A stretch of 64,000 bases of DNA from a virus. Below the pieces are notes generated by a model. It worked only from the letters and a program-made list of their open reading frames with translations. It did not search any database and was not told where the DNA came from. The DNA lies in the IMG/VR virus record IMGVR_UViG_3300046703_000335, positions 24,336 through 88,335 of that record, one strand, 5' to 3'. Numbering within the stretch: position 1 is the stretch's first letter; the number at the start of each line of letters is the position of its first letter. The translations under genes were made by a program, and so were the position numbers. Positions 2,416-64,000 of this stretch are shown one piece after another.

Positions 2416-3119
2416 ACTTGATATACCTTATGATCCTTTTCCAATGCACATAACTTCTTTGTTGCCCTATAAGGATGCTCCTTAGCCCATTCTGCATCTT
2501 TAGGGAAACAATATGAAGGATCTAATATCACACTTGGAGGATTATCTATGAAGTATCGATTCATATGACTCTCATCATGCCATACAGCTACATACCCTTT
2601 ATTTATATCTTCTCCGATATTATTAGAAATAGTCTCTGACATCTTTAAGAAGTTTGCAGCTTTACCCCCGTTAAAACCTCCAGCATAATAGTGCTGACCG
2701 CACATAGGAGCTACATAAGCTCTTGATACAGGATTCCTATCATAGGATAATACATGGAGTGGAGCGTTCCAATAGCCTGGATGCAACGTAGCTACAGAAT
2801 CCCCAAGTATCTCATTACCCACATACCCTTCAAAGACCATATCAATATCACAATAAAAGAGGTAGTCCATATCTGATAATATCTTGGAATTCTTGCAAAA
2901 AATCTCATATCTACGTAAAGTCATCCCAGGCCATGGATAGTGTTCTTGAGGAATTACCGTAACATCATTTCTTTTTATGTCATTGGGTAGATTTGTAAAA
3001 AGGAAATAACTGATCTCATGACCCTCTTGGGATAAAAAATAATTCTTGGCTGAATCATACAGATTATCTATAAATTCAAGATATTTGTTCGTAGCTATAT
3101 TTAACAAACCTATCTTCAT
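2412..3119 (-). CDS. Family 6 glycosyltransferase (GT6, ABO/alpha-1,3-Gal transferase-like)
   Basis: NKYLEFIDNLYDSAKNYF..GHEISYFLFT, YCDIDMVF (DxD) and ATLHPGYWN resemble GT6 signatures. Confidence 0.6.
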   Translation of the reverse strand: MKIGLLNIATNKYLEFIDNLYDSAKNYFLSQEGHEISYFLFTNLPNDIKRNDVTVIPQEHYPWPGMTLRRYEIFCKNSKILSDMDYLFYCDIDMVFEGYVGNEILGDSVATLHPGYWNAPLHVLSYDRNPVSRAYVAPMCGQHYYAGGFNGGKAANFLKMSETISNNIGEDINKGYVAVWHDESHMNRYFIDNPPSVILDPSYCFPKDAEWAKEHPYRATKKLCALEKDHKVYQV

Positions 3120-3772
3120 ATGCTAAACCTAATCTTTCTTAATGTTTCTGACAGAGCGCTATTCTTTGTATTAAAAAAGGAATCACTATGAATTCGATGT
3201 CTAACCAGCACCATATCTATATTAAAAAAAGTCCAACCATCTTTAATTAATCTTATCCACAAATCATAATCCTCTACACCATCCCATGAGAAATCCCATG
3301 AAATATCTCTTCCTCTTCTATTAATCATTGATGAAGAGTTTATTATAGTATTTATATCTGAAAAGTTAGATTCAGAAATATCACCAGTGTACAACCTTGG
3401 GGTATCATCCGATTCCCCAAAATACTGACAATGTGTCCCTATGACATCATACCGGGCTGCATAAGCTATCTGTCTTTCTAATTTTTCTGGTAGCCAGACA
3501 TCATCAACGTCTAACAGACAAATAGAATCATATTTAGAAAAAAGTAAAAGCTTATTTAATGTTATAGATTTACCCTTAAACTCCGGGAACTCTCTGATAT
3601 GGATTTTATCTGAAGAATAGCTATTAGCTATTTTAAAAATTTCAGAATTTCCAGGGTGACCATTCACCCCTATAAGAAGTTCCCAGTCTATAAACGTCTG
3701 AGCTTTTATAGAAGATATACTCTCCTCAAGGAATTCTATACCATTATATATTGGCATTAATATCGAAACCAC
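3116..3772 (-). CDS. Family 2 glycosyltransferase
   Basis: VSILMPIYNGIEFLEESISSI..Q and LLDVDD motifs (GT-A, DxD). Confidence 0.65.
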   Translation of the reverse strand: MVSILMPIYNGIEFLEESISSIKAQTFIDWELLIGVNGHPGNSEIFKIANSYSSDKIHIREFPEFKGKSITLNKLLLFSKYDSICLLDVDDVWLPEKLERQIAYAARYDVIGTHCQYFGESDDTPRLYTGDISESNFSDINTIINSSSMINRRGRDISWDFSWDGVEDYDLWIRLIKDGWTFFNIDMVLVRHRIHSDSFFNTKNSALSETLRKIRFSI

Positions 3773-4476
3773 TATGATATTCCTCTTAGTACCTCAGTAG
3801 CTACAGTCACATAATACTCTTTATTTAATTCTAAAGTTCTTAGCATGCTATCGGGTCTTTCAGTGTGTTCATATATTAATGTAGGGAGATATTTAAACTT
3901 AGCACCTGCCATGAAACATCGACACCAGAAATTCCAATCCTCATAGTGTGCACCCTTTCTTACTTTATATCCAGACACTTTCTCCCACAAACTTTTACGA
4001 TAGAGAGAAGAACAAAAAATTGGATTATGTGACAAGAGTACTTCTTTTGTTATTTCTCCAATAAAGGGCTTGACTACTCTACCTGAACTAGTCATGTATC
4101 CGTAAAAGATATCAAAATCTTTGTCAATATAATGTGCAAGTGTCCGAAGACTTCTTGGGAAGAAAAAGTCGTCAGCATCTAAGGTTATAACAAATTCATA
4201 GTTAGAAGCTTTAATACCTGTATTTCGTGCGGCACTTAATCCCATATTTTTTTCATGTTGAATTACCCTAATAGCATCTCTATTCTCATTTATTAAACTC
4301 AGAGCCTCTTGATTAAAAGGCTTAGTAGAACAATCATCTACTAAGATTATCTCTTTCTCAATATTCTGTAATAAGCAACTACTAAGTGCTCTGTAAAGGA
4401 ATTCCGAATCATTATACGTGCACACTATTATGGATATCATAATCATTTCCATTCTAAGGGAATATCTTGATGACAA
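3772..4476 (-). CDS. Family 2 glycosyltransferase
   Basis: ISIIVCTYNDSEFLYRALSSCLLQ, ILVDDCS, TLDADD. Confidence 0.65.
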   Translation of the reverse strand: MSSRYSLRMEMIMISIIVCTYNDSEFLYRALSSCLLQNIEKEIILVDDCSTKPFNQEALSLINENRDAIRVIQHEKNMGLSAARNTGIKASNYEFVITLDADDFFFPRSLRTLAHYIDKDFDIFYGYMTSSGRVVKPFIGEITKEVLLSHNPIFCSSLYRKSLWEKVSGYKVRKGAHYEDWNFWCRCFMAGAKFKYLPTLIYEHTERPDSMLRTLELNKEYYVTVATEVLRGIS

Positions 4477-27144: not shown

Positions 27145-27185
27145 AGTATATTATCTTTTATTTATATTATATGTTAATTTACAAA

Positions 27186-27586
27186 TGGAGGAGAGGGGAG
27201 TTGAACCCCTGTGTCAAGTATGATCCCTATTAATCTCTACATGCTTAGTTTAATTTGCACTACCCCTCTGTAAATATCAATTAAACAAAATTTTTAACAG
27301 AGTGCATTAAGTAATTTCGGTCCCCTTCTCTATTATGCTTTTCGGGTACCCTACTTCGTGATCTTTTAAGAGATCGGATCCCACGATTGTCCGATACTCT
27401 TTGCTACCTTTAATTAGGCAGCGATTGAGCTTGCAACACCTAAACTGATATTATCAGCAAAGGCGAGAGCAAACTTAACAGCATAATCTTTTGCAATTAT
27501 ACTTTAACGGATGATTTACGAGGCCAACCGTTATCCTCAACATGCAATTAATACTTCACCTACCTGATCGAAACCAGTACTCCCCC
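27186..27586 (-). ncRNA. ssrA: tmRNA (ssrA), about 401 nt, one-piece
   Basis: Minus-strand 5' end GGGGGAGTACTGGTTTCGATCAGG resembles the E. coli tmRNA 5' end. An internal CGGTTGGCCTCGTAAA block matches the PK1 region. The 3' end ..CACAGGGGTTCAACTCCCCTCTCCTCC-A forms a T-arm plus acceptor. The acceptor pairs 7/7 with the 5' GGGGGAG, including a G3-U70 pair and an A discriminator, which are alanine identity elements. Candidate tag ORF: GCA AAA GAT ... GCT GCC TAA. Confidence 0.8.
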
Positions 27587-38902: not shown

Positions 38903-39100
38903 TTCTTTTATGAAGATCGTAAGAAAAATCAATAAGAAGTAGAGCACCTTATGGGTGGAGCAGTTGGGTTACTTTGGGATACCCACTTATGGTATCCAAG
39001 AAACTTTTTTAATGCTGATGTTTTGTAACTTTTTCTCATATCCGTGCTATCCTAAAATATTTAAAAAATTACGCAGAAGTTAGGGATGCTAATTTTTTGG

Positions 39101-39173
39101 CTTCTAATGATGGACTTGAACCATCGACGCATTTCTTATAAGGAAATTGCCCTACCAACTGGGCTAATTAGAA
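39101..39173 (-). tRNA. tRNA, anticodon UAU (Ile, AUA codon). CCA encoded at 39098-39100.
   Basis: Minus strand TTCTAAT-TA-GCCC-AGTTGGTA-GGGC-A-ATTTC-CTTATAA-GAAAT-GCGTC-GATGG-TTCAAGT-CCATC-ATTAGAA-G-CCA. All stems pair perfectly. Confidence 0.75.
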
Positions 39174-39536
39174 AATGTAAGCAACCAAAGTAATTGCGTA
39201 ATTTTTATTATTGTTTGTTTCAATCCGCGCTTTTCAGCGACTATATAAAAATGAGCTAATATAAGAATCTCTACCTAAGTCGTTCGTACTATATGATGAC
39301 CAGATACCCATACTGGGCAGTGATCATCAAGTTTTTTTTACCCAAAAAAAATGTAAGTCCAAACTATAATGGTAAAAATTCTATTAATTCGTTTGTTCGT
39401 TTCAATCCACGCTTTTCAGCGACTGTACAAAAGTAAAAAAGTTGAAACTACAGAAGTCGTGCATGCTAGTCTGAGGGATTTGAACCCCCTACCTATTGAT
39501 TAGAAGTCAATTGCTCTACCAAATGAGCTAATGTAA
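39174..39536 (-). repeat. Degenerate tandem array of ~175-bp units, each starting (minus strand) with CTTACATT
   Basis: AATGTAAG on the plus strand at 39174-39181, 39346-39353 and 39529-39536. Conserved AGTCGCTGAAAAGCGYGGATTGAAAC segments at about 39214-39247 and 39394-39430, each carrying a CGCT-GAAA-AGCG tetraloop hairpin. Confidence 0.45.
39464..39536 (-). tRNA. tRNA-Arg(UCU)-like element whose 5' acceptor strand does not pair. Positions 1-8 are replaced by the CTTACATT unit motif. Possible pseudogene or repair substrate.
   Basis: Good D-arm GCTC-ATTTGGTA-GAGC, anticodon arm ATTGA-CTTCTAA-TCAAT, T-arm GGGGG-TTCAAAT-CCCTC. The 3' acceptor AGACTAG has no complementary 5' strand. Confidence 0.45.
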
Positions 39537-43291: not shown

Positions 43292-45034
43292 TTATGGGTT
43301 TAAAATACCGCCACAAACATAAACTCTTACTGGGAGTCCAGTTGATTGATCCCTTAAGTATATCGCCTCATAACCCGATCCTGTGCTTCCTATGTACGTT
43401 CCTGTAGGGGAACTTGGGTAAATATCTAAGGAATATACTGGTTCGTACATTTCAATAAATGTATCACAAATGCCAATTTTAGTATCACCAGAAACTTTAA
43501 TATTCAAATTTGGTCCACAGATTGTCCATGCAGTACTCGTATCATTAAACAATCCAAAGCGAGCATTCAATTGTGAAGTGTAAATTGTATTATACGCTAA
43601 AGAGGCGGATCCGATATTATTAGAGACATCTGTTTTAGGTAAAATGTCTAGGGAAGTCATACATACACGTGCTTCTATAGTTGCACTATTTATCAGCAAA
43701 ACATCCATATTACTTATAGAATTTTTAATATTTAAATTAGGACCGCATATCTCCCAATTAGTAGCATTAGAGCTATACAGGCCATTTTCAGTGTATAATC
43801 TATTTGCATAGATTGTGCTGTATTTAAGAATTGAGGAACCTACATTATAGCTATTATCAGCGTCTGGCATAATCGCTTTAGTAGTTAGAGTGCCCGCAAA
43901 GGTACCTGTCCCGGAATTAATATTACCAACCCATATGCCATCAAAACCTACGCCAGGACCCCCAAGATTAACACCACAAGGTAATCCTGATATAACTGTT
44001 TTGTTTAATATAAGATTAGATGCATTTGAAGAAAATACTGCAGTAGCTGGATCAGACGAATAAACGCTAAATGTACCTGCTTGTACTTTTACATCATAAT
44101 CATATGCAGTAGTCCCTAAGAAAATAGTATTACTATTTAATGAAATAGCCGATAAAGCATCACTATTATTATAGAGTTTAAAATTCCCGGATCTTATGTT
44201 AATATCAGTTGAATTATCAAGATCACCAATTGTCACACTACTACAAAGATATGGTAAAATAGTATTGGTATTGGTATTGGGGCTATTAAGATTTGTAGCA
44301 AACACATCACTAGCATATATCTCTCTATAGATTAACGAACTTGATCCTATAGAGTACCCGCATGTAGAGACAGGATAAACATTATTGGTAATAAGATCCC
44401 CGGTAAGCTTCAGCTTACCCCCTGTAGGTAATTCAAGTTGAGGAACGCCCCCTACCTCTCCAAAAACATACTGACTACCATTTACACTAATGGTGTATTT
44501 GTATATCGTAGAATTATCATATAACTCTGTATAAACATTTTTAAAAGCAATAGTACCGGTAGAACTCGTACCACTTAAACTAAAATTAGTACTGAGCGTT
44601 AAGTTATTCGCAGAAGCTTCAAAATCACTGCCTATGTAAATAGCATTATCAGGACCGCTTATAACAACCCCACAAATAGCCATAGTCGGAAGAGATAAAT
44701 CAAAAATTCCAACATCAACACCTGATCTACCTACAAGTTTAACCATATTTTTGGCAACATTGATCTCAGATCCAGCTTCTCCAGGAGTAAGGCTTATATC
44801 AGATAATGCATTATATGGGTCAAATAGAGTTTTATAAATCTTTGCAATAAAATCATAAGTTCTTTCACCAGCTATTCTCTCAGTACGTCCCCATTCATCG
44901 TCTGTATCAGTTTGGGGCACATTGAGGATAGCACCAGGAAGCATCTCATCACCAACACCATAATATATGCTCTTTGGTCCTTTTGAAAAAGTTTCATATA
45001 TTGAGCTATATGAAAGAAAATCACTGTCAGCCAT
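43292..45034 (-). CDS. Tail fiber / receptor-binding-like structural protein with internal repeats
   Basis: Ser/Thr/Asn/Gly-rich beta-rich sequence. Duplicated ~50-aa module: W(E/T)ICGPNLNIK .. twice. Confidence 0.45.
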   Translation of the reverse strand: MADSDFLSYSSIYETFSKGPKSIYYGVGDEMLPGAILNVPQTDTDDEWGRTERIAGERTYDFIAKIYKTLFDPYNALSDISLTPGEAGSEINVAKNMVKLVGRSGVDVGIFDLSLPTMAICGVVISGPDNAIYIGSDFEASANNLTLSTNFSLSGTSSTGTIAFKNVYTELYDNSTIYKYTISVNGSQYVFGEVGGVPQLELPTGGKLKLTGDLITNNVYPVSTCGYSIGSSSLIYREIYASDVFATNLNSPNTNTNTILPYLCSSVTIGDLDNSTDINIRSGNFKLYNNSDALSAISLNSNTIFLGTTAYDYDVKVQAGTFSVYSSDPATAVFSSNASNLILNKTVISGLPCGVNLGGPGVGFDGIWVGNINSGTGTFAGTLTTKAIMPDADNSYNVGSSILKYSTIYANRLYTENGLYSSNATNWEICGPNLNIKNSISNMDVLLINSATIEARVCMTSLDILPKTDVSNNIGSASLAYNTIYTSQLNARFGLFNDTSTAWTICGPNLNIKVSGDTKIGICDTFIEMYEPVYSLDIYPSSPTGTYIGSTGSGYEAIYLRDQSTGLPVRVYVCGGILNP

Positions 45035-45092
45035 AGCGGACTCCTTATTGATATCTCGATAACCGTACTATCAATAACATATTCGCATTAAG

Positions 45093-45125
45093 AGATTATT
45101 AAACAAAAAAGGCTCTGTAATTACA
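45093..45125 (-). terminator. Rho-independent terminator
   Basis: Minus strand AAGGTTCTGTAATTACAGAGCCTT hairpin followed by TTTTTTGTTTAAT. Confidence 0.65.
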
Positions 45126-45166
45126 GAACCTTAGTTTATAATAAAAGTTTATTAGCCCCTATAAGA

Positions 45167-46078
45167 TCAATCTACTGGAACAACCTTCAACTTAAACGTG
45201 ACATAACATTTAAATTTTTCTGGGTGCCGTAGGTATTCCAGATAATGTTCGATAGGTACTTCTTGATCCTCTTCCTTACCAAAAACTTTAAGAGTCTCTA
45301 CATCTCCATGCTTCTCTAATCTAAGCTCCCCCTTATGCGTATATTCTATAGGGCTATCCGCAGTAGGGGTAGTATTAACCGGTTCATCATCAAGTGCTGC
45401 ATGATTCCCAGAACCTCCTGTAGAATCAGGATCGATGTTCTCCTGCTTATAATTCTTTTCAACAGCTTTAAGGATAGAAGGAACTTCTCTTGGAGGAGTA
45501 TCATGCTCAAGAATAAAATCTACAGTATCCTTGATTATATCCGGATCCTCGGTACTACTGGAGATTTTTTCCCAATGTAAATCATTAAACTTGGATTCCC
45601 CAGCAGGTTTAGAAAGTTCTACCCGAGCATTCTCAGGAATACGCCCCATATCAGCAGATAATGTCGCTAATCTCTTTAACCGATGGGGAGTAACATGGAG
45701 GATATCTGAAATTTCCTTATCTTTTTTTCCAAGACCATTTAATCGAAGATATGCACGATTGAGGTCTATTGGACTGAGATTTACACGATTGATATTTTCG
45801 TCCAAAGAAATTAGATAAGCTTCTTCCTCATCAGCTTCTATAACTACAAATTCATCTTCAGGAAGTTCATGGTCATTCCCGAAAGATTCTTTTAACGCTT
45901 TAAGTCTTCGCTGTCCTGCGACCACTTCAAAAACTCCATCAGAATTTTTTCTGAGAATAAGTTTTGAAATAAGTTTATGCTTTTTTATAGAAGTAGAGAG
46001 AGACGTGATATCATCAGCATCCCCATCAACAACTGTACGGGCGTTACACTGGGAAATAACAAGTTCACCAATTTTCAT
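45167..46078 (-). CDS. ParB-like nuclease domain protein
   Basis: N-terminal ParB/Srx fold motif VVAGQRRLKAL. Confidence 0.55.
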   Translation of the reverse strand: MKIGELVISQCNARTVVDGDADDITSLSTSIKKHKLISKLILRKNSDGVFEVVAGQRRLKALKESFGNDHELPEDEFVVIEADEEEAYLISLDENINRVNLSPIDLNRAYLRLNGLGKKDKEISDILHVTPHRLKRLATLSADMGRIPENARVELSKPAGESKFNDLHWEKISSSTEDPDIIKDTVDFILEHDTPPREVPSILKAVEKNYKQENIDPDSTGGSGNHAALDDEPVNTTPTADSPIEYTHKGELRLEKHGDVETLKVFGKEEDQEVPIEHYLEYLRHPEKFKCYVTFKLKVVPVD

Positions 46079-46101
46079 TTGAATCTTCCTTTAACAAAGG
46101 T

Positions 46102-48054
46102 TTAAAAAAGTTTTTCGGATACAATCGTCAAACCTTCTTTTTTTTCTATTTTTTTAATTTCTTCTTTTTCAGGGAGTCCACCGATAAATTTCAGGAACTC
46201 ATCCTCATTAATGATCTTAACTCCAAGCTTAGCAGCCTTCTCATTCTTTTTGGACCCCGTATCTTTATCATTTGTGACAAGGTAAGTCAAGCCCTCTGAT
46301 ACTGTATCCTTTGCTGTACCACCTCTATCAACCACTAATGCCTGAAATTCTTTTCTTCCCATGGAGGTCAGTGACCCAGTAACACAAAAAGAGAAGCCGG
46401 TCAGAATTCCCTTTTTCTTTTCCTTAATTTTAATAACTTTAAGCAGATCTTCCGCCATATCTTTAATCTCAGCTATCCCCTCACAAACTGTTCGAGCAGA
46501 AGTCTCTGCAAAACCAGATAACTTTTCCAGATCTGAAGGTTTTATAGAAATAATTCTATCCCAAGAACCAAACTTTTCTACTAAAATTTCAGCGGTAGAT
46601 TTAGAACAAGTAGGGATCCCCAAAGCAGTGATAAATTTTTCCAGATAAAGTTCAGAGGTATCTTTCATAGTTTCAAAGAAGGATAATATGGTTTTTTCCC
46701 CAATCCCTTCCACAGCAATGAAATCATCTGTGGTCAGTTTATAAAGATCTGATACCATTCGAATCTTATTAAGATCCCACAGCCTCTCTACAAATTTATC
46801 TGAAAAGCCTTTCATGCCCAGAGTTTGTATCCAGTATACAATTCTATTCACATCTCTTTCTTTACAAACCAAATTTCGACACCAAATGTTTACGCCATCA
46901 TCTTCCAAAGGACCACCACATGAAGGACATTTAGTAGGTTTCTCAAAGGGATCTCCTTCAGTAATGACTTCGGTTACCTGAGGGATAATGTCCCCCTTTT
47001 TTTCAATAACGACTTCTGCTCCAATCCCTATACCCATCTCTATCATGTAAGAGAAGTTATGTACAGAAGCTTTTTTGATGGTACTCCCCATAAGTTCAGC
47101 ATCTTCAAGCATTACAACAGGCGTAAATTTACCCGTACGACCTATCTGAAGTTTAAGACCTATGATCGTCGTAATAATTTTTTCTGAATCAAATTTTAGA
47201 GCTACCTGACCTTCAGGACGATTCTTCTTTACTCCTAATTTTTCCTGAAGATTAAGATCATTAAGTTTTAAAACTAAGCCATCGATATCATATGAAAATT
47301 TATTACGTTGATCATCCCGAATAGATTTGTAGATAGCCAATATTTCTTCAATTGAGTGACAGATAAAAGTTTCTACTGTTGTAAATCCTAATTTCTTAAG
47401 TATCTCAATCTTCTCAGTCTCTTTGCTCACCTTAGCATTGATGTCATAAGCAATGACACGGATATACTTACTATGTGTTCCATCTAATCTTCGACTTATA
47501 CCACTGGCAGCATTTCTGGCATTCTTATAATGCCCGCCACTTTCTTCTTGTATAAGATCATAATCCTTTTTTGAAAGAACACCCTCTCCACGGCATACCA
47601 CAGCATTTTTTATTGGAATGATCCCCGGTAGTTGCCTGAACAGTCTGGCATTCTGGTATATGTCCGCTCCTACTTGTCCGTCTCCTCTTGTTAGACTACT
47701 CTCAAGCCTACCTTGTGAATAGCACATTTCTAACGAAAACCCATCAATTTTATGTTGAAGAACAAATTCAAGAGCAGTAGTTTTAAGCTCCAGGGTAACT
47801 CTTGTATACCACTCTACTATAGCATTTATAGAGGATACCTTATTTTGAGATCCCATAGCTATTGTATGCTTCTTTTTAGGCCATAAGCTACACTCACTAT
47901 GCCCCACTTTATTCAATCTTGGGTGATCTGGTGGTAGATGCCTATAAATAAAATCCTTGAAGGTATCATATTCAGGGTCATCAATTAAAGATTGCTTATT
48001 ATAGTAGGCATCATCATATTCGTCTAATAATTTTAATTTATCTTGGATATTCAT
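46102..48054 (-). CDS. ligA: NAD-dependent DNA ligase
   Basis: KIDGFS adenylation motif, CPSCGGPL..CRNLVC zinc finger, HhH region, C-terminal BRCT (GFSFCVTGSL). Confidence 0.85.
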   Translation of the reverse strand: MNIQDKLKLLDEYDDAYYNKQSLIDDPEYDTFKDFIYRHLPPDHPRLNKVGHSECSLWPKKKHTIAMGSQNKVSSINAIVEWYTRVTLELKTTALEFVLQHKIDGFSLEMCYSQGRLESSLTRGDGQVGADIYQNARLFRQLPGIIPIKNAVVCRGEGVLSKKDYDLIQEESGGHYKNARNAASGISRRLDGTHSKYIRVIAYDINAKVSKETEKIEILKKLGFTTVETFICHSIEEILAIYKSIRDDQRNKFSYDIDGLVLKLNDLNLQEKLGVKKNRPEGQVALKFDSEKIITTIIGLKLQIGRTGKFTPVVMLEDAELMGSTIKKASVHNFSYMIEMGIGIGAEVVIEKKGDIIPQVTEVITEGDPFEKPTKCPSCGGPLEDDGVNIWCRNLVCKERDVNRIVYWIQTLGMKGFSDKFVERLWDLNKIRMVSDLYKLTTDDFIAVEGIGEKTILSFFETMKDTSELYLEKFITALGIPTCSKSTAEILVEKFGSWDRIISIKPSDLEKLSGFAETSARTVCEGIAEIKDMAEDLLKVIKIKEKKKGILTGFSFCVTGSLTSMGRKEFQALVVDRGGTAKDTVSEGLTYLVTNDKDTGSKKNEKAAKLGVKIINEDEFLKFIGGLPEKEEIKKIEKKEGLTIVSEKLF

Positions 48055-49139
48055 GCAAACAATCCTTGTAGAGTTAATTTAGAGTAGCTACTTTTGTAAA
48101 ATTCCTCTTCAGTTCTAAAGTTCTTAATTGCATTTATGCTAAAAGAGCATACGCACAAATTATTGGAATGTCCAATTTTTTCAGGAGAGATATTGTTTCT
48201 ATAACCATAAATCATGCTTATTTTATGGTCGATGGACGGTTGCTTCCCTCTACCTTGATCCAAAAGTAAATCTTCACCAGTATAATAACATGTCCCAAAA
48301 AATAACATCCATCCTTCTACTAATTCCTTTGCCCATTTTCTTGTCTCTTGCTGTACCATCAATTTATAATTAGCGTATTCTGATCTCTTTTCTTTCGGAA
48401 GCCAATGTCCCTGAGCTATCATTAATGCCCTTTTATAATTAGAATACGCTATATTGTAAACACCATATTTTCTATAGATAGTTTCCTTTATCTTATCTTT
48501 TATAGCTGGTAACTTAAATACATTATCTACCCCATATATAGCTAATATAGCCTGATTCCTTTTTGCTATATACTCTGCCCTTATAGCACTATCTTTCCAC
48601 CTATCTTTCATATCTGTAGAGGACTTAAGTAGTATAGCACTACTTTTATTTTTAAGTTTATTAATTACAGCAGGTATCTTAGAGGGATTATCAACACCAT
48701 ACCTTTTTATAAAGGTTTCTTTCCTTTTAGCATTAATACTGTCAATATTTTTTTTATTTTTTTTCTGTATATTATGAATAACTTCTTTAATCTGAAATGG
48801 ATTCTCAACACCATAACGATCTAAAAAATGAAGCTTATTCTTATCGTTTTGCAATCTAATAGCTTCAACCTGACTTCTTGTTATTTTTAAATAATCTACC
48901 AGATACTTTAAAACAATATAAGGAATCTTTTTTTCTCTTGATATGCTTCTTAAACCTTTTTCTAATTCGAGATAATCATATTTTAAATCTGATATAGGAT
49001 AGCCATAAAAAGAACAGTAAAAATTTATACGATCTTCTACACTATGGTATCTTGAATAGTGCTGCACTACAGAAGAAATAACTTTGAACTCTTTTTTACA
49101 TACACTACAGATTATATTTTTTTTAAGTTTATATAACAT
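48051..49139 (-). CDS. HNH homing-endonuclease-like protein with four YGV(D/E)NP repeats
   Basis: C-terminal SIDHKISMIYG .. HSNNLCVC HNH motif. Repeats RYGVENPFQI, RYGVDNPSKI, IYGVDNVFKL, KYGVYNIAYS. Overlaps the ligA stop by 4 bp. Confidence 0.55.
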   Translation of the reverse strand: MLYKLKKNIICSVCKKEFKVISSVVQHYSRYHSVEDRINFYCSFYGYPISDLKYDYLELEKGLRSISREKKIPYIVLKYLVDYLKITRSQVEAIRLQNDKNKLHFLDRYGVENPFQIKEVIHNIQKKNKKNIDSINAKRKETFIKRYGVDNPSKIPAVINKLKNKSSAILLKSSTDMKDRWKDSAIRAEYIAKRNQAILAIYGVDNVFKLPAIKDKIKETIYRKYGVYNIAYSNYKRALMIAQGHWLPKEKRSEYANYKLMVQQETRKWAKELVEGWMLFFGTCYYTGEDLLLDQGRGKQPSIDHKISMIYGYRNNISPEKIGHSNNLCVCSFSINAIKNFRTEEEFYKSSYSKLTLQGLFA

Positions 49140-56621: not shown

Positions 56622-58156
56622 CTTAATACTTCTGAAACATCTGTGATATTATCTGCGTTCTCTATAGCATGGGTGTAATTCCAAATGAAACCTGTTTCAA
56701 AATCTATACATGCATCAAACGGCTTAAAAAAGCTATTTCTTCGATTCTTAAGACAACAGTATTTTAATCTGTTATTATCTCCATCAGTATCAAATTTATA
56801 AGAGGATATAACGAGATCAGCACTTCGCTCAACTTCATGGTTATTACTGAGTGCTGTTAAATCATATAGCCCTTCATTCTTCTTAGCTTCACGATATCCA
56901 TCACGATTACACTGATGGGGGGATAACATCCTAATCCCCATACCATTATTAAACGTAAGGCAAAATCTTTTTAAATTTTTTACAATATTATTTGTTGTCT
57001 CGTTATGATCACGAGAGCGTTCCCCTTCATCAGCACCCATAAGACTTATATAATCTATTACACCAAAATCCAAATTTCTTCCAGTCAATTGCAAATCCTG
57101 TTGATATTGCCGAAATTTAAGATCTATCTCAGAAAGTGTAGTAACTGTTTTATCTGGTTGCCATACAAAGAATCTTCCGTAAGGTGAGTTCTCCGAAGTG
57201 TTATCAAGGTCATCACAAACTTTAAAAAAATATTCTTTCTCTTCTTTATTGAGTCTACCATACAAAACATCATTGTAGGAAATCTTACCAACAAGATGAG
57301 CATATTTAGGCCATTCTATTCTAAATTTTGGATTACAACTATGAAGGATATATATCTTATTTCTAATTTCTTGAAAGCTCATTTCCAAAGTAACAAAAGC
57401 AGTATTCCATCCCCCGTAAAGTGCTCGGTAAGCTTGATTAAGTGCAAAAGTTGTTTTACAATGACCTGTGAATGCCGTAATAATCATTAGCTCACCAGAC
57501 TTAAGACCTCCAGTAGACTCATCTATCTCTCGTAACCAAGTTTGTATCCCAATAGAATCAGTGGGATTCGCTTCTGATTTGTTGTACTGCTCTTTAACTT
57601 CCCGTGCATCTTCTTCACTGACGATCTGACTCTCTGTTTTTATACCAGCTTTTTGTTGACTAAAAGCCCGAGTTTCTCGTGCAATATAGCTAATAGAGTC
57701 AGAGATCCCTTTTAATTTTGTTTTAACTTTCCCCTTTACTATATCAAAACCTGTTGAAGCTATTTTCTGTGCATTATTGAGAATCTTATCTAATTCTAGG
57801 ATCTGCTGCTGTTCATTGTACTGCTTAAGTATAGTCCGGTAATCCATCCCTACATAAGGCTGTTGACTTTTAATTTTATCCAGAATTACAAGAGTTGATT
57901 CACTTCCTTCGACAGTCTGAAAATGATTTTTAATAAATTCAAAGGAAGGTACGGATAACTCTGTAGTATCACAACTTTTTATATATTCTAATATAAAGTA
58001 GTAAAGATTTTTATAAGCTTTTTCTTCAGGAGATTTAGGTATAATATCCTGCATAGCTCTAAAATTCTTTACGCAGTCTCTCTGAGATATTGTCTCAATA
58101 CCCTCAGCAGTTTTTATATATATAATTGATCTAAATAGCGCGTCAATTTCTATCAT
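56618..58156 (-). CDS. DnaB-family replicative helicase
   Basis: Walker A ITAFTGHCKTTFAL and TLEMS motif. RecA-like C-terminal domain. Confidence 0.75.
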   Translation of the reverse strand: MIEIDALFRSIIYIKTAEGIETISQRDCVKNFRAMQDIIPKSPEEKAYKNLYYFILEYIKSCDTTELSVPSFEFIKNHFQTVEGSESTLVILDKIKSQQPYVGMDYRTILKQYNEQQQILELDKILNNAQKIASTGFDIVKGKVKTKLKGISDSISYIARETRAFSQQKAGIKTESQIVSEEDAREVKEQYNKSEANPTDSIGIQTWLREIDESTGGLKSGELMIITAFTGHCKTTFALNQAYRALYGGWNTAFVTLEMSFQEIRNKIYILHSCNPKFRIEWPKYAHLVGKISYNDVLYGRLNKEEKEYFFKVCDDLDNTSENSPYGRFFVWQPDKTVTTLSEIDLKFRQYQQDLQLTGRNLDFGVIDYISLMGADEGERSRDHNETTNNIVKNLKRFCLTFNNGMGIRMLSPHQCNRDGYREAKKNEGLYDLTALSNNHEVERSADLVISSYKFDTDGDNNRLKYCCLKNRRNSFFKPFDACIDFETGFIWNYTHAIENADNITDVSEVLR

Positions 58157-58163
58157 ACTTTAC

Positions 58164-58844
58164 CTACATATTTGCGAGTTTATCGTTCGCTTTTTGTTCC
58201 AAATTAATTAAGTTAGATTTACGAGGTACATAACCTTTTAAATCTTTAATAGTACTTAAATTTACAGTCTTATAATTTTCAAAATAAATTTTTAGGTCAT
58301 CACTATATTCACGGGCATCTTTTAAGTGAATAGATGAATGAGCAAATATCCAAGTAGGTTTCGCAAGACGGCCCCTATTTTTTATTACTTCTAGTACACA
58401 ATCCTTGAGGCTAGCATACCGGGCACTTGTTGTGAACATTAATGCCAACATATCATATTGATTAAGATGTGATGTAGTCAACCAATCTCCACTCGAATCC
58501 TTAGGTACATTATACTGCTCAACAATAGTGCCTCCTTCAAGAATTATATAATTCTTATACATAAAGCCTGTTAAAAAATAGCACTTTACGATATACAAGT
58601 ATAAGTCTTCTAATCCATGAAAGATAATATCATTATTCCCGAACAGTTTATGAACAGTAGCAGAGTCTGTCGGATTAGCAGGACTTACAGGAGACAAGAT
58701 ACCAAACTTCTTACTGATACTAGCATTTATTCGGCAATAACATGGCTCTGTATGAGGATAGATCACTCTATGACCAGATTCATTCTTTTCAGTAAAACCA
58801 GTTCCTATAAAACCGGTGTCACCACAATACGGGCACTTTCCCAT
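58164..58844 (-). CDS. Hypothetical protein with N-terminal zinc ribbon (possible helicase-associated factor)
   Basis: CPYCGDTG .. CYC. Confidence 0.3.
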   Translation of the reverse strand: MGKCPYCGDTGFIGTGFTEKNESGHRVIYPHTEPCYCRINASISKKFGILSPVSPANPTDSATVHKLFGNNDIIFHGLEDLYLYIVKCYFLTGFMYKNYIILEGGTIVEQYNVPKDSSGDWLTTSHLNQYDMLALMFTTSARYASLKDCVLEVIKNRGRLAKPTWIFAHSSIHLKDAREYSDDLKIYFENYKTVNLSTIKDLKGYVPRKSNLINLEQKANDKLANM

Positions 58845-58847
58845 AAA

Positions 58848-60632
58848 CTATACCACTTTGCTAAAAACAGAATTATATAGAGCGTTAACGGAACTCTCAT
58901 CTTCCTGAAACAATACATCATCATTTTTAAAATCGATGGCTCCTTGAGCAATATCACCAACAATTTGGTTTATAAGATTTTTCTTACCTTCAAGGATACC
59001 TAAAACATGTTCATCAATAGTATCTCTATTGATCATATGGAGCAATAAAATGTGCTCCTGAATGCTACCAATACGTTGGGCTCTACCTATTGATTGGTAA
59101 AGATCCCCATAAGACCAGGGCGTATCATAATATAGTATTACCCCCGCAGCTTGCAAGTTAATAGCTGCAGACCCTGCTTGAGTGATGAAGATAATATTAC
59201 AATCCTGGCTCATATCCTGAAAGAGTTTACGAGCATTAGTTCTTGCATTAATATCCTCATCACCAGTAATCTTAACATGCTTCAATTCAAGATCATTGAG
59301 GATAGCTGATAATCTCTTAATACCTGATTTAAAACGCGTAAATACAATAACTTTTTCATCTGAAAGTTCCTGATCAAAGAGTCTTCTAAATTCAGTTTCT
59401 TTTGAACTTTCTCCATCCTCATTAAGCCATCCTGGACCATTTGACACAAGCTGGCAATAGGATAATGAAGCTATTTTATTTTTAGCCATTCCCTCTTTTG
59501 TTAATGACTCTTCATATTTAATTTTAAGTAAATCATACATCATACTCTCTTTGTCAGTAAGATCCTCTACTTTACTATTAGCATACTCTTCAAACTTAAA
59601 ATATCTCTCTTTTATTAATTTCTGATATAGCTCTCCGCTTAGAGCCTTACGATAAAGCTGCTTCTGAGCTTCTGACATTTCAAGTATAAGTTTTCGAGAT
59701 ATAAGCTGGGGAAGTTCACTAGCCACATCTCGAGTCCTACGAATTAAGAAAAAGGGATCAATAGTATCTTTAAATTGAACAAGATTCTTATATCCTGTTA
59801 CTTTATTGAAATAACGCTTTCTACCTTTTTCCCATCTTGTCATCTTTTTACGAACAGTATACTCGGAAAAAAACTTTATTTTACCGGGGAATAAACCTGG
59901 CACGATCACACGATATATATAGTAAGCCTCTTCTAATCTGTTTTTTATAATCGTGGCAGACATTCCATAGCAGTATTTAGCCTTACTTGATAATTCACTG
60001 GCACCAAACCAAGTTTTGGTTTTCATGTTTTTGAACTCTTGGCACTCATCAAGAGCAATCTGAAACACTGGTCCACGATTTTCTGAAAGAAACGTATAAT
60101 CTTCTTGAACTGCATGGTAATTAACTATTAATACGTGAGCATCTACGGTTGTATATTGCGCTTTCCTCGCCTCAAAACCACTAATAATACGGCACTTTTT
60201 ACCTGCAGCTTTTAGATCTTCAATTTTACCATATTCTTGTTTACTCTGCATTTTTCCAAATTCATCTTTATACCTAACCTGCCCATAATCATTAGTCAGT
60301 ACATGAGTAGTAATACCATTGCAGAACTTTTCAAATTCCTCAGCCCACTGTGCCATAGCTGATTTTGGCGTAACTACTATAAGTTTAAGATTTGGTTCGG
60401 ACATGAGTCGATAGACATATGCAGTTATCATTTGTAAAGTTTTGCCCAGTCCGACGCCATCTCCAAGAATCATTCGAGAAAGGGACAGAAAATGAAGGAC
60501 ACCTATAACTTGATAATCGCGCAATTGAGTAGTGGGTTTCAAATATGAACAGGGTTTCAGTGTGGCTTTTTTTGCCTGGCGAAGTTTTTGTAGGAATGGG
60601 TAATTAGAAGGTCTGCTAGAAAAACCAGCCAT
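58848..60632 (-). CDS. SNF2-family helicase
   Basis: LGDGVGLGKT (motif I), ALDECQEFKN (motif II), C-terminal helicase motifs including QSIGRAQRIG. Confidence 0.8.
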   Translation of the reverse strand: MAGFSSRPSNYPFLQKLRQAKKATLKPCSYLKPTTQLRDYQVIGVLHFLSLSRMILGDGVGLGKTLQMITAYVYRLMSEPNLKLIVVTPKSAMAQWAEEFEKFCNGITTHVLTNDYGQVRYKDEFGKMQSKQEYGKIEDLKAAGKKCRIISGFEARKAQYTTVDAHVLIVNYHAVQEDYTFLSENRGPVFQIALDECQEFKNMKTKTWFGASELSSKAKYCYGMSATIIKNRLEEAYYIYRVIVPGLFPGKIKFFSEYTVRKKMTRWEKGRKRYFNKVTGYKNLVQFKDTIDPFFLIRRTRDVASELPQLISRKLILEMSEAQKQLYRKALSGELYQKLIKERYFKFEEYANSKVEDLTDKESMMYDLLKIKYEESLTKEGMAKNKIASLSYCQLVSNGPGWLNEDGESSKETEFRRLFDQELSDEKVIVFTRFKSGIKRLSAILNDLELKHVKITGDEDINARTNARKLFQDMSQDCNIIFITQAGSAAINLQAAGVILYYDTPWSYGDLYQSIGRAQRIGSIQEHILLLHMINRDTIDEHVLGILEGKKNLINQIVGDIAQGAIDFKNDDVLFQEDESSVNALYNSVFSKVV

Positions 60633-60702
60633 ATCAGGTATCCGTTCTATAAAATTTATAAAAATTTACCATACGAGTAAATTTTATATTTATTTCCTGC
60701 TT

Positions 60703-61908
60703 CTATGAAACTGCTCTTAGATCTGATGTCTCCAAAAGTCTTACACTTTCTCCACAGGCTTGAATTCCTCTCGAACTGAGAGTATCTATTCCGAAATCTT
60801 CTATATTTATTGATGCATTTAAATCTCTGTCTTCAATATGACCACATTCACAAATATAAATTCTATCCTCTAATTTTAAATCCTCCTTTATATTTCCACA
60901 TACCCTACAAAGTTTAGAACTTGGATAAAATCTATCTACGTCTATGATTTCACCACCATACCATGCAGTCTTATACAATGATTGACGCTTTATCTCATTG
61001 AATGAAGCATCAGCTAAAGCACCTGCAAGTTTATGGTTTTTCACCATACCTAAGACATTTAAATCCTCTAATGCAATGTATCTCGGCTTGGTTTTCGTCA
61101 AGATACTTGTCATCTTATGGATTGCATCTTTTCGTTGATTACTTATTCTACTATAAATTTTCTGTATTTTTAACTTAATCTTATATCTATTATTTGAGGA
61201 CCTTTTAGTTTTTTTATCAAATTTCTTTCTTGCTAAATTCTTTTGTGCATGAGCTAATCTTTTTTTTGATTTTCTTAAATACTTGTTATTTTTAAAAACT
61301 TGACCATTAGAACATGTAGCTAAATTTTTTATACCGACATCAATGCCCAAGACAGTTTCTAATTGATTTGTTATTTCAGGTATCTCTACCTCACAATTAA
61401 CAGAAACGAACCACTTGCCTGTTATTTTAGAAATAGTCAAAGAGTTATACTTAACATTTTCAGTAGGTATATACCCTTTTTCCTTTAACTTAACTATACC
61501 AATTTTAGCTAATTTAATTTTATCGATAGTAACATGCAAATTACTACTGTCTAAGTGGTAGGTAGGTATACTTTTATGCTTAGATTTAAATTTGGGAAAG
61601 CCAATCTTTTTTCCTTTTTTAAGTCCTCGAAAAAAGTTTTTAAAAGCTTTATCTAAATCTATCAAAGCTAATTGAGGAGCACACTTAGAAACTTCGTACA
61701 TCCAAGGAAATTCTTTTTTTTTGCGAGCACATAATGATTTATGTTGGTCTATAGCTGATAAAGATCTCTTTTCACTCTCGTATAGAGATATACGCTCCGA
61801 AAGACCTAAATTATAAGCAAAACGAGCTACACCGGCACTCTTCTCGAAAAGAGTACGTTGTTTGTTATTTGGTTTTATCTCAGTTTTATATGATCTATTT
61901 ATTATCAT
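60703..61908 (-). CDS. tnpB: IS200/IS605-family TnpB (OrfB) RNA-guided nuclease-like transposase accessory protein
   Basis: N-terminal YKTEIKPNNKQRTLFEKSAGVARFAYN. RuvC-I GIDVGIKNLA, RuvC-II ALEDLN, zinc finger CRVCGN .. CECGH, RuvC-III EDRDLNASINI. All catalytic residues intact. Confidence 0.8.
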   Translation of the reverse strand: MIINRSYKTEIKPNNKQRTLFEKSAGVARFAYNLGLSERISLYESEKRSLSAIDQHKSLCARKKKEFPWMYEVSKCAPQLALIDLDKAFKNFFRGLKKGKKIGFPKFKSKHKSIPTYHLDSSNLHVTIDKIKLAKIGIVKLKEKGYIPTENVKYNSLTISKITGKWFVSVNCEVEIPEITNQLETVLGIDVGIKNLATCSNGQVFKNNKYLRKSKKRLAHAQKNLARKKFDKKTKRSSNNRYKIKLKIQKIYSRISNQRKDAIHKMTSILTKTKPRYIALEDLNVLGMVKNHKLAGALADASFNEIKRQSLYKTAWYGGEIIDVDRFYPSSKLCRVCGNIKEDLKLEDRIYICECGHIEDRDLNASINIEDFGIDTLSSRGIQACGESVRLLETSDLRAVS

Positions 61909-62034
61909 GTATTATAATAGGCTATCATTAGCATTTAACAGCCTCCCTGACCATGTTTCCAAAAACAAATCCATCTAATCTATAAGATTTGATAGACAGC
62001 TAATAAATTTCCAAAAATTGATAAGTCTATAGTA

Positions 62035-62081
62035 ATGAATTTAAAGTATAAGACTCTATAGCTTATACTTTAAATTCATTA
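62035..62081. repeat. Perfect 19-bp inverted repeat with a 9-nt spacer
   Basis: aatgaatttaaagtataag-actctatag-cttatactttaaattcatt. Confidence 0.6.
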
Positions 62082-62196
62082 CTGGATTTTAAAGTACGTA
62101 ATAAATAATTACTATACTTTTAAAATCAATTCAAAAACATTCTTAGTTAAATCTATATATAGAAAAAAGTTTTGTCAATACTACTTTAGAAGTAAA

Positions 62197-63459
62197 TTAT
62201 CGATTCATTCGTGCCAGCTCATCAGCGACACTTTTTAATTTTTTACCAGCTTTTGTGTGCTGCTCTGATTCTTCATATAAGTCCTTTGCAACTCCACTAG
62301 ACCCCCCACTATATCCTCCCGTAGACCCGCCAATTCCTCCCTGGGACATGCTCATCGCTGCATCCTCTTCCATAGAGGCTTCCTCTTCGATGTATCCTGC
62401 AAGAACTTTTCGAGCCATACGTTTAATCTTATACTTATTTGAGGAAAATCTTTCATTATTTGTCATAGGACTCCCCGTTGGTTTATCTAACTCATCCCCA
62501 CGTACTCTGTCTTTACTCTGTTCATCTACAGGTTCAAAAGGAGATTTTTCAGTAGGAGGTTGTTGATCTGCTTTATCTTTTAAAGAAGGCTGTTGAGGCT
62601 GCTCTTTTTGCTGAATATCCTGAAGATATGGTCCTACTATCTTATTAAAATAGTTAGGACCTCCCATATAATGACCCCCTGGTACACCATCTGTTTTTGG
62701 GATACTATGATCAGGATAAACTAATTGATTTAAACTTAAAGACCAAATTCTAAATTCATCAAATATCCCAAAGAAACTTTGATAATTCAAAGGGGGGAAT
62801 TGCCCTCTTGATGGCACCCCGCCATTCAAAAGGATATTAACGGTATTACTAGGGGGTTCCTTCACATTACAATATACTGATTCACCTGAATTATCTATAG
62901 AAATAACATTAGAATTGCTGCCAGGAAAAAGATCAATATCCTTCTCAAATACTTCTGGTGTAACATTGGAACTCTTAGGATATATATTAGCAGTACCTTC
63001 ACTTTTTGTCCCATCCGGATTTAGCATTACTTCGTATACCACTAAGGATTTTCCATCCTGAGAATACTGTGTTGTAGATATGACTACTTTAAGCCAAATA
63101 AAATAATCCGCAAAATATTTACCGTGATTACCACCCTTAAGACTATTAACAAGACTGATTCTTTTATCATTATTGCTATTATCTTCTAATATGCTTGTGA
63201 TACCCTTAAAATTTATGCTATTTGAAGGAAGAGCATTGTAGTAATAATATCTTTTTCTTGTGACCGGTTTATCTACATTCATATCTGGAGCCGGGGAAAG
63301 TGAATCCTGTGCAGGAGTCCCAGGGGATTGAGGAGAAATTCCTGATGCAGGAACCGGAGCACTTTGAGGAGACACTTCTTTTCCCGCTACTACATTTCTT
63401 AAAACGTTATTTAAAATTTTTCTATTCAGCATGCTATCCTCTAATGATTGGTCTACCAA
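62197..63459 (-). CDS. Hypothetical protein with a Pro/Gln/Ser-rich N-terminal region (possibly structural)
   Basis: ORF. Low-complexity PQ-rich segments. Confidence 0.35.
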   Translation of the reverse strand: MVDQSLEDSMLNRKILNNVLRNVVAGKEVSPQSAPVPASGISPQSPGTPAQDSLSPAPDMNVDKPVTRKRYYYYNALPSNSINFKGITSILEDNSNNDKRISLVNSLKGGNHGKYFADYFIWLKVVISTTQYSQDGKSLVVYEVMLNPDGTKSEGTANIYPKSSNVTPEVFEKDIDLFPGSNSNVISIDNSGESVYCNVKEPPSNTVNILLNGGVPSRGQFPPLNYQSFFGIFDEFRIWSLSLNQLVYPDHSIPKTDGVPGGHYMGGPNYFNKIVGPYLQDIQQKEQPQQPSLKDKADQQPPTEKSPFEPVDEQSKDRVRGDELDKPTGSPMTNNERFSSNKYKIKRMARKVLAGYIEEEASMEEDAAMSMSQGGIGGSTGGYSGGSSGVAKDLYEESEQHTKAGKKLKSVADELARMNR

Positions 63460-64000
63460 TCAGCTCAAAAATATCAACGACATCTTTATCCGAAAATGGG
63501 TTCAAATAATTCCGATTACTATCTATTGTTTCACCAGCTATAACCATAAGATATATCTTACCCAAAAGATCAGGGTTATTATGATACCCCATACCTGATC
63601 TCATAAATATATAAAATTGATATACTTTTTTATTATGCCCAGTAGGCACAGTATATGTTTCAGGGTAAGTCAAATAAGGTCTTCCTTCACCTACCTTAAA
63701 TGCTGGATTTCCACCCGTAGACATCTTAAAGTCATTTCTACCGCGCTTTGCATCCGTACCCTGCCCCAAGATATAATCATTTGTGAAAGCATTCAAAGGA
63801 TCTTGAAGTTTATTTCTAACTGAGACCATTACTATATCACTTGGGCCCCCGGAATACTCCAGAGCATCAGAATAACAGGTATAATCCAGGATATCCCCCG
63901 CCAAACTTGGACTGAATGCAGGGAGACGGTCTACTATATTTGATATTATAGAATTAGGGATATCATATCGAGTTATCTCATACGCAGTACCACTTTCTTC
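63434..64000 (-). CDS. Hypothetical protein, 5' end lies beyond the window end
   Basis: Reading frame remains open upstream of the listed TTG start through position 64000. Confidence 0.35.
   Translation of the reverse strand, partial: EESGTAYEITRYDIPNSIISNIVDRLPAFSPSLAGDILDYTCYSDALEYSGGPSDIVMVSVRNKLQDPLNAFTNDYILGQGTDAKRGRNDFKMSTGGNPAFKVGEGRPYLTYPETYTVPTGHNKKVYQFYIFMRSGMGYHNNPDLLGKIYLMVIAGETIDSNRNYLNPFSDKDVVDIFELIGRPIIRG

Follow-up and report, generated by a model that had tools for sequence, protein, structure and literature searches.

A Solo TnpB Element Assigned to the IS607 Lineage, with a Predicted Guide RNA, Upstream of a Phage SNF2 Helicase Gene

The DNA described here is a 64,000-nt stretch of the IMG/VR record IMGVR_UViG_3300046703_000335 (record positions 24,336–88,335), referred to below as the window; coordinates are window-based unless another locus is named. 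It contains a tnpB gene which, together with its omega-RNA and without TnpA, probably constitutes a non-autonomous element of the IS607 family located in the 5′ untranslated region (5′UTR) of a phage SNF2 helicase gene, where RNA-guided homing or retention would maintain it. We estimate the probability of this reading at about 0.7. The integrity of the gene, the limits of the element, the structure of the omega-RNA, the lineage, the empty sites in related phages, and the guide matches are all observed in the sequences compared. The SNF2 gene (58848–60632) is located downstream of tnpB on the same strand. The parts of the element are as follows, where TAM stands for the target-adjacent motif, LE for the left end, ORF for an open reading frame, and reRNA for the right-end RNA.

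60642–61941, minus strand: whole element, approximately 1,300 bp from the left end to the right end; DNA homology among copies stops at these limits.
61942–61947, minus strand: left flank GGGAGG, the predicted TAM and GG core dinucleotide, formerly the Shine–Dalgarno sequence of SNF2; GG is found before every independent copy.
61909–61941, minus strand: LE of 33 nt, CTGTTAAATGCTAATGATAGCCTATTATAATAC, with a tandem TGYTAAY motif; alignment of the window, L004, and L005.
60703–61908, minus strand: tnpB ORF, 401 aa, with Pfam domains, RuvC residues, and a zinc finger.
60642–60784, minus strand: omega-RNA (reRNA) scaffold, 143 nt; alignment A1, RNAalifold, and model R1.
60768–60782, minus strand: stem-loop 1, a 5-bp stem with a conserved AGUUC loop; all five pairs covary.
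60694–60758, minus strand: RAGATH-18-like module (CCUGUGGAG ... GAAGCAGGAA) spanning the stop codon (60703–60705); sub-threshold match to Rfam RF03064.
60649–60693, minus strand: 3′ stem, in which 60689–60693 pairs with 60649–60653 and encloses a 9-bp hairpin (60677–60685 with 60661–60669); covariation.
60622–60641, minus strand: predicted 20-nt guide, ATACCTGATATGGCTGGTTT, the first flanking bases past the right end, covering the SNF2 start codon (60630–60632); conservation stops abruptly after ...AGAACGG.

Limits of the Element and Its Insertion Sites

Related phages carry TnpBs 83–84% identical to the window TnpB in three different intergenic locations, and the DNA of the element is 83% identical to copies in two other insertion contexts (L004, and L005 with L007). 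In L004, the TnpB gene lies between a ParB-like gene and a 580-aa gene, with a DNA ligase gene before them. The window has the same gene order at 43292–48054, where TnpB is absent, and thus contains the empty version of the L004 site at 45109–45172. Comparison of this region with L004 confirmed the insertion; the diverged intergenic DNA prevented a base-exact determination of the junction. The third context is represented by L005, L006, and L007. The three contexts share DNA similarity over a segment that starts approximately 35 nt before the ATG, includes 61 nt after the stop codon, and is sharply bounded on both sides, with the left limit good to about ±3 nt. The first-pass annotation of this DNA, made from the sequence alone, had extended the element over 60640–62085; the homology among copies brings its left limit back to about 61941.

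The right end in all copies is ...TTTTATAGAACGG, with the terminal ...AGAACGG, and complete divergence follows it. The left junctions (marked with a slash) are GGGAGG/CTGTTAA in the window, TGGGG/CTGTTAA in L004, and CAAGG/TTTGTAA in L005. Every independent copy is preceded by GG: the flanks are GGAGG in the window, TGGGG in L004, CAAGG in L005, TTGGG in L246, and AGGGG in L010. No inverted repeat links the two ends of the element. Short tandem motifs are present at both of them, namely, two copies of TGYTAAY in the left end and, in the right end, two copies of GATAGATTTT (L004 and L005) or TAAATTTT (window); they might correspond to the subterminal TnpA-binding units of IS607 elements.

Two other features of the copies can be noted. 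L005 (4271–4898) and L007 (3019) have the same left flank and element, and approximately 625 bp abutting the right end in L005 are absent from L007; this deletion or insertion is exactly at the guide position and alters the guide. In L011, the sequences on either side of the TnpB element (2350–2500 and 3712–3830) are paralogous, and the element is located between tandem duplicated genes.

The TnpB Protein

The tnpB ORF matches the Pfam families HTH_OrfB_IS605 (PF12323), OrfB_IS605 (PF01385), and Cas12f1-like_TNB (PF07282), and the NCBIfam guided_TnpB model gives it 300 bits with a cut-off of 100. The RuvC triad D190/E281/D362 was aligned to D191/E278/D361 of the ISDra2 TnpB (PDB 8bf8), and the zinc finger consists of four cysteines, C334, C337, C353, and C355, so that its second half is CxC, not CxxC. 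The CxC form is common to the TnpA-associated relatives, e.g., L010. Judging by these residues and the three domains, the protein is probably catalytically intact, as had been supposed. The ratio of nonsynonymous to synonymous substitution rates (dN/dS) between TnpB and the copies at other loci is 0.10–0.14 across approximately 0.8 synonymous substitutions per site; these values argue that TnpB is under purifying selection between copies at different loci. Neither a TnpA nor a second TnpB was found anywhere in the 64-kb window, in agreement with the earlier remark that the gene has no tnpA partner.

The Omega-RNA

The first 82 nt of the scaffold overlap the end of tnpB, and its last 61 nt constitute the right end of the element, filling the 70-bp gap before SNF2. 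An omega-RNA in this position, overlapping the 3′ end of the ORF and running into the gap, had been expected from the first reading, and the alignment A1, RNAalifold, and the model R1 all place it there. The A1 alignment comprises 25 distinct 3′ ends obtained from TnpB-based loci in viral contigs and from a scan for the motif GAAGCAGGAA-N25-55-AGAACGG; the TnpB identity ranges from 42% to 100% and the GC content from 33% to 64%. RNAalifold found six helices in A1: the 5-bp stem with the AGUUC loop, the outer (CCUGU/GCAGG) and two inner helices of the RAGATH-18-like module, a 5-bp bridging stem of the pattern GGAA-NNNNN ... NNNNN-AGAACGG, and an inner hairpin. Helices 5 and 6 covary strongly; one of the pairs is represented by CG in 12 sequences, AU in five, UA in four, and GC in three.

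Pairing was observed in 96.4% of the cells of A1, compared with 72.4% in shuffles and 38–54% when the partners were slid out of register. Compensatory changes on both sides were found in 21 of the 25 pairs, and the values of the five measures were reached by none of the 500 shuffles. The conserved right-end structure on which the first-pass annotation had staked its omega-RNA is therefore present. The synonymous divergence between copies, approximately 0.8 over the gene, falls to approximately 0.3 in the last 31 codons, which is consistent with the double duty of the ORF end as omega-RNA. Purifying selection on TnpB and compensatory changes in its RNA together speak for the functionality of both.

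The covariance model R1, built from A1, gives 113.7 bits at 60642–60784 on the minus strand and has no other match in the window. According to R1, TnpB genes that did not contribute to A1 also carry the RNA at their 3′ end, both in viral contigs and in essentially all of the 80 loci taken from bacterial and archaeal genomes. In L012, R1 cross-detects a genuine RAGATH-18 RNA, located downstream of a second TnpB, at 34 bits (61.2 bits with the Rfam model). At Rfam gathering thresholds, neither this locus nor any of the 20 related loci scanned matched an omega-RNA family. The search of the 3′ end with omega-RNA models that had been suggested gave a match when an E-value threshold was used, namely, RAGATH-18 (RF03064) at 60758–60694 on the tnpB strand, with 24.7 bits against a gathering score of 44.9; similar sub-threshold matches are found at the same position in six relatives (24.8–30.2 bits). 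RAGATH-18 is known as the core of the IS607 TnpB guide RNA (PMC11061315). Given the R1 matches at the 80 genome loci and at the RAGATH-18 of L012, the scaffold is a diverged relative of the RAGATH-18 reRNA and not a member of this family by Rfam’s criterion; it is a widespread omega-RNA type and not a new one.

In addition, a second strong omega-RNA match (95.5 bits) was found in L010 at 1143–1273, just upstream of two tRNA genes and the autonomous TnpA–TnpB element, which means that the L010 phage holds more than one copy.

Empty Sites and the Predicted Guide

SNF2 orthologues 92%, 87%, and 82% identical to the SNF2 protein of the window (P0122, P0123, and P0125) are encoded on L161, L164, and L162, respectively. 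In all three, the upstream gene is followed by an intergenic region of 270–290 bp and then by SNF2, with no TnpB, and R1 found no omega-RNA on these contigs. After the conserved second hairpin of this region, the empty sites and the filled allele read as follows:

L161, empty: ...AACAGGGG ATACCTGGTATGG
L164, empty: ...AACAGGGA ATACCTGATATGG
L162, empty: ...CAAGGGGA ATACCTGATGG
Window, filled: ...GTCAGGGAGG (element) ATACCTGATATGG

As read from these alleles, the insertion is precisely between a Shine–Dalgarno-like G run (GGGAGG) and the spacer before the SNF2 ATG. Since the right end of the element finishes in GG, the sequence GGAUACCUGAUAUG is preserved upstream of SNF2.

The length of the guide was taken from published TnpBs (PMC11061315), and the G-rich left flank would be the TAM. 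The guide matches L164 at 20 of 20 positions, preceded by AGGGA, and L161 at 19 of 20, preceded by AGGGG, with the mismatch at position 8. L162 has a 2-nt deletion after guide position 7 or 9 and GGGGA at the place of the TAM. The differences in the TAM or its proximal part, seen in all three empty alleles, could be explained either by escape from cleavage or by neutral drift in an untranslated spacer, and three cases cannot decide between them. When the 20-nt guide was searched for as an exact string, the viral_contigs collection yielded the source contig alone and the metagenome_contigs collection no match; the latter evidently lacks even the source contigs, and this result says little about other targets. 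The first-pass annotation had allowed for a target in host or competing-phage DNA. The matches at the empty sites make the DNA of competing related phages plausible, whereas the host target is left without evidence, the guide being the flank of the donor site, as it is in all TnpB elements.

In two of the contexts examined (window 60642–60632 and L246 approximately 4314–4322), only 7–9 nt separate the right end from the start codon of the gene that follows. A G-rich target motif resembling the Shine–Dalgarno sequence may bias the elements toward ribosome-binding sites.

Family Assignment

A serine-recombinase TnpA is encoded directly upstream of tnpB in 39 of the 123 loci of relatives. In L010, whose TnpB is 69% identical to that of the window, the gene is preceded by an overlapping 206-aa ORF with MerR helix-turn-helix and resolvase domains, and the same TnpA–TnpB arrangement is found in L019. 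L251 keeps a 53-aa remnant of TnpA that is 90% identical to the C-terminus of the L010 TnpA. The solo TnpB element of L246 (70% identity) and the autonomous element of L010 share the left-end start GGG/AATCTAACAG. A Y1 transposase was matched in none of the 123 related loci, in a search whose negative result is weak evidence.

The published properties of IS607 elements include a GG core, a TGGG TAM, and a scaffold ending in UCGG that spares its own locus (bioRxiv 10.1101/2023.11.20.567912; PMC13565253). The window element terminates in GG, is inserted at or after GG, and has no terminal inverted repeats; an upstream serine TnpA is absent from the 64-kb window and present in relatives. Subterminal hairpins at both ends and an AT-rich insertion motif, as in IS200/IS605 elements, were not found in it, the left flank being G-rich. 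Based on the serine TnpA of the relatives, the right end in GG, the insertion after GG, and the G-rich flank, the lineage is IS607, and the window copy is its non-autonomous solo-TnpB derivative. The label “IS1341-like” used earlier describes the solo-TnpB layout correctly, but not the lineage.

Relatives with 60–84% identity were found on metagenomic contigs of up to 282 kb. Those inspected are phage-like: they are IMG/VR entries, are syntenic with the window, or are located beside a baseplate gene. Among 185,579 species, each represented by one genome, the closest relative reached 52% identity, in a search sensitive to fairly close relatives only. This suggests that the TnpB lineage is phage-resident. 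In some relatives (L016 and L031), a small ribbon-helix-helix-like ORF (...AQIIRDLILAAME...) precedes tnpB by approximately 100 nt and resembles the Arc proteins that have reportedly been found in IS605 elements recently.

The SNF2 5′UTR Outside the Element

Two further features are located between the element and the upstream gene.

62031–62083, strand-neutral: 22-bp perfect palindrome (arms 62031–62052 and 62062–62083), part of the SNF2 5′UTR and not an element end.
62150–62178, minus strand: phage promoter-like site TTGACA-17-TAGATT, matching 10 of 12 consensus positions and kept in the element-free L161, L162, and L164.

The first-pass annotation took a 19-bp palindrome (62035–62081) and a 9-bp hairpin (60668–60693) for the bounds of the element. 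Both structures exist. The arms of the first are 22 bp and perfect, and those of the second are at 60661–60669 and 60677–60685. As bounds, they do not hold: homology among copies stops at 61941, 90 nt before the palindrome, and the small hairpin is a helix within the omega-RNA scaffold. The palindrome is absent from the other element copies (L004 and L005), and related phages without the element (L161, L162, and L164) have a different hairpin at its position in each case. Being outside the element, it cannot be the left end. Nor is it the terminator of the upstream gene, because the promoter-like site directly after that gene leaves the palindrome downstream, within a long 5′UTR. A repeated phage motif is likewise ruled out, as the palindrome occurs once in the window.

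The promoter-like site is located directly after the upstream 420-aa gene, 5′ of the SNF2 5′UTR and outside the element. From this position, it would transcribe tnpB and the omega-RNA along with SNF2. A further conserved hairpin is present in the SNF2 5′UTR at approximately 61971–61995 (within 61956–62017; CTATCAAATCT/AGATTAGATGG on the minus strand), with an exact TTTTTGGAAA repeat on either side. L161 and L164 also have this hairpin, and in L162 its changes are compensatory; it may act as a regulatory RNA or as an operator.

Proposed Mechanism and Alternative Explanations

According to the mechanism we propose, which follows the model published for TnpB, the element would be co-transcribed with the SNF2 operon, the conserved phage promoter at 62178–62150 being the probable origin of the transcript. 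TnpB would bind the structured 3′ part of its own transcript (the scaffold, 60784–60642), and the next 16–20 nt (AUACCUGAUAUGGCUGGUUU) would serve as the guide. The complex would recognize a G-rich TAM ending in GG together with the guide sequence, a combination expected only in element-free genomes, and cut the element-free allele; the break would be repaired from the carrier genome. The element would thereby be retained and also copied into related co-infecting phages, that is, it would home. For a lytic phage, such homing would take place between genomes that co-replicate or co-infect. Its own locus would be protected, as the right-end ...ACGG and not the TAM precedes the target there. Moves to new sites would need a serine-recombinase TnpA acting in trans.

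Several points weigh against this reading. Expression, the identity of the TAM, cleavage, and homing are predictions. With no TnpA in the window, current mobility is unproven; the left limit is uncertain by approximately 3 nt, and the TAM is a predicted one. The RAGATH-18 match is below the Rfam threshold, and the single-sequence fold, which reproduces the consensus, is no more stable than shuffles (z = −0.24, a value uninformative in AT-rich RNA), so the structure has to be drawn from covariation. The only empty site with a 20/20 guide match, that of L164, has GGGA and not GG directly before it, and the sites of L161 and L162 have a mismatch or the 2-nt deletion near the TAM-proximal end. The three empty sites are thus candidate, not proven, cleavable targets.

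An IS200/IS605-type (IS1341) element, in which the palindrome and the 9-bp hairpin would be the ends, recognized by a Y1 TnpA as single-stranded DNA hairpins, would have the same solo-TnpB architecture, and both hairpins do exist. The NCBIfam IS200_TnpB model also outscores IS607_TnpB on the protein (308.7 vs. 218.4 bits), although both scores are below the cut-offs. However, this explanation is contradicted by the limits of the element and by the absence of the palindrome from the other copies, the element-free phages having unrelated hairpins in its place. The left flank is G-rich, in contrast to IS605 with its typically AT-rich TAM, the right end is in GG, and the transposase found in the relatives is a serine recombinase, with no Y1 match in the weak search described above. 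We therefore regard it as scarcely credible. It would also be possible to consider the element an inert relic, whose ORF and RNA are intact by chance or owing to recent insertion and are inactive in the phage. The absence of TnpA from the window and the CxC half of the zinc finger would fit a relic, and the activity of TnpB and its omega-RNA is itself predicted from sequence. Nevertheless, a dN/dS of 0.10–0.14 over such a synonymous distance and the compensatory changes in the RNA helices are hard to reconcile with inactivity, and the CxC form is shared with TnpA-associated relatives; a relic is therefore quite improbable.

The third explanation concerns the beneficiary. TnpB and its omega-RNA might be a domesticated weapon of the phage that cuts the SNF2 start region of related co-infecting phages, much as a free-standing homing endonuclease does in marker exclusion. 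In favor of this explanation, the start codon under the guide is that of a replication helicase, inteins and LAGLIDADG endonucleases have a hotspot in the SNF2 of relatives, and the examined copies at 70–84% identity are solo TnpBs. The clade with at least 60% identity was seen on phage-like contigs only, the best match in the 185,579 species genomes being 52% identical, but this sampling was pattern-based and finds close relatives only. Moreover, at 69–72% identity, TnpA is still intact in L010 and survives as a remnant in L251, and copies at different loci with sharp insertion-sequence ends indicate recent transposition, not a fixed domesticated gene. The molecular mechanism would be the same as in homing, and only the beneficiary would differ. 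We consider domestication unlikely, and an IS607-family element maintained by homing or retention is preferred.

Comparison with Known Systems

The closest described counterpart is the ISFba1 TnpB of an IS607 element with a RAGATH-18-derived reRNA (Ren et al. 2024, PMC11061315; PDB 8iaz). Both proteins are approximately 390–400 aa in length and belong to a serine-recombinase lineage, with 214 bits in a phmmer comparison of the window TnpB with 8iaz. Both have a G/A-rich TAM beside the left end (predicted in our case), and in both RNAs the CCUGUGGAG...GAAGCAGGAA kink-turn module is followed by a 3′ flanking stem-loop region and then the guide (PMC11061315). However, the RAGATH-18-like module of the window overlaps the last 55 nt of the ORF, whereas the ISFba1 reRNA is wholly outside the coding sequence, and the 3′ flank is 52 nt here and 64 nt in ISFba1 (PMC11061315). 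In contrast to ISFba1, the window copy has no TnpA, is located in a phage, and scores 24.7 bits with Rfam RAGATH-18, below 44.9.

The CboIStron, an IS607 TnpB–TnpA(S) system (Zedaveinyte et al., bioRxiv 10.1101/2023.11.20.567912), has a GG core dinucleotide at both junctions, as does the window element, and a TGGG TAM that coincides with the target motif of the transposase, a further likeness given the predicted TAM of the window. The ...CGG terminus of the scaffold, which spares the own locus from cutting (predicted here), is also common to both; the published function is homing or retention (bioRxiv 10.1101/2023.11.20.567912). Unlike the CboIStron, the window element has no evident group I intron, no TnpA, and a far shorter left end (33 nt before the ATG). 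The ISDra2 TnpB of the IS200/IS605 family (PDB 8bf8, 8exa) is an equally similar protein (214.6 bits) with the same catalytic triad and domain order, and its omega-RNA also overlaps the 3′ end of the ORF. However, the Y1 TnpA, AT-rich TTGAT TAM, and subterminal DNA hairpins of ISDra2 were not seen in the window element. With the free-standing homing endonucleases Seg and Mob of T-even phages, the element shares the position of a selfish nuclease gene between conserved phage genes; Seg and Mob cut the element-free allele in co-infection (PMC13565253), and the same is predicted here. Unlike them, recognition would occur by an RNA guide and a TAM and not by protein, and the element has defined transposon ends.

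The Source Phage and Other Features

The source contig is 210 kb in length, and the window contains replication genes, an RNA ligase, a homing-endonuclease-like ORF, tRNAs, and a transfer-messenger RNA (tmRNA); on these grounds, it looks like a part of a large phage. A megablast search of 58000–64000 against 50,697 phage records found no match, that is, no annotated relative. PHROGs gave no function for the product of the 420-aa ORF upstream of tnpB (62197–63459). The phage-encoded tmRNA is located at 27183–27586 on the minus strand (Rfam RF00023, 133 bits), with the tag peptide AKDYAVKFALAFADNISLGVASSIAA predicted by ARAGORN. A tRNA-Ile with the anticodon TAT is at 39098–39173 on the minus strand, and a second, partial tRNA-like match (Rfam model positions 7–64) is at 39472–39531 on the same strand. 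In a 362-aa ORF that adjoins the DNA ligase gene (48051–49139, minus strand), matches to the homing-endonuclease and endonuclease VII families of phages were found.

In related phages, other selfish elements also have a hotspot in SNF2, and intein or LAGLIDADG domains are present in several orthologues (P0128, P0132, P0160, P0166, P0186, and P0215). In L164, a LAGLIDADG ORF (2408–3586) starts with the SNF2 N-terminus, which implies that SNF2 is broken near its start by an intein or intron.

Significance

Viral TnpB genes, solo TnpBs, guide RNAs of IS607 TnpBs, and TnpB homing have already been described (PMC10691335, PMC11061315, bioRxiv 10.1101/2023.11.20.567912, PMC13565253), and the window element leaves the current understanding of TnpB unchanged. 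It extends the RAGATH-18-type guide RNA module, in diverged shape, to TnpBs in which the RNA and the coding sequence overlap, and such compact (401 aa) nucleases from AT-rich phages join the pool of candidate editors. A broader proposal, which we put forward tentatively and would not yet favor, is that a phage-resident IS607-type TnpB/omega-RNA lineage persists without a transposase as an RNA-guided free-standing homing endonuclease moving between co-infecting large phages. The coincidence of its G-rich TAM with the Shine–Dalgarno sequence would lead the element to land between the ribosome-binding site and the start codon, with the guide covering the start of an essential gene, here SNF2, in rivals. 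As filled and empty alleles are available in related phages and the guide can be read against its presumed target, phage-to-phage RNA-guided homing can be tested here by mixed infection.

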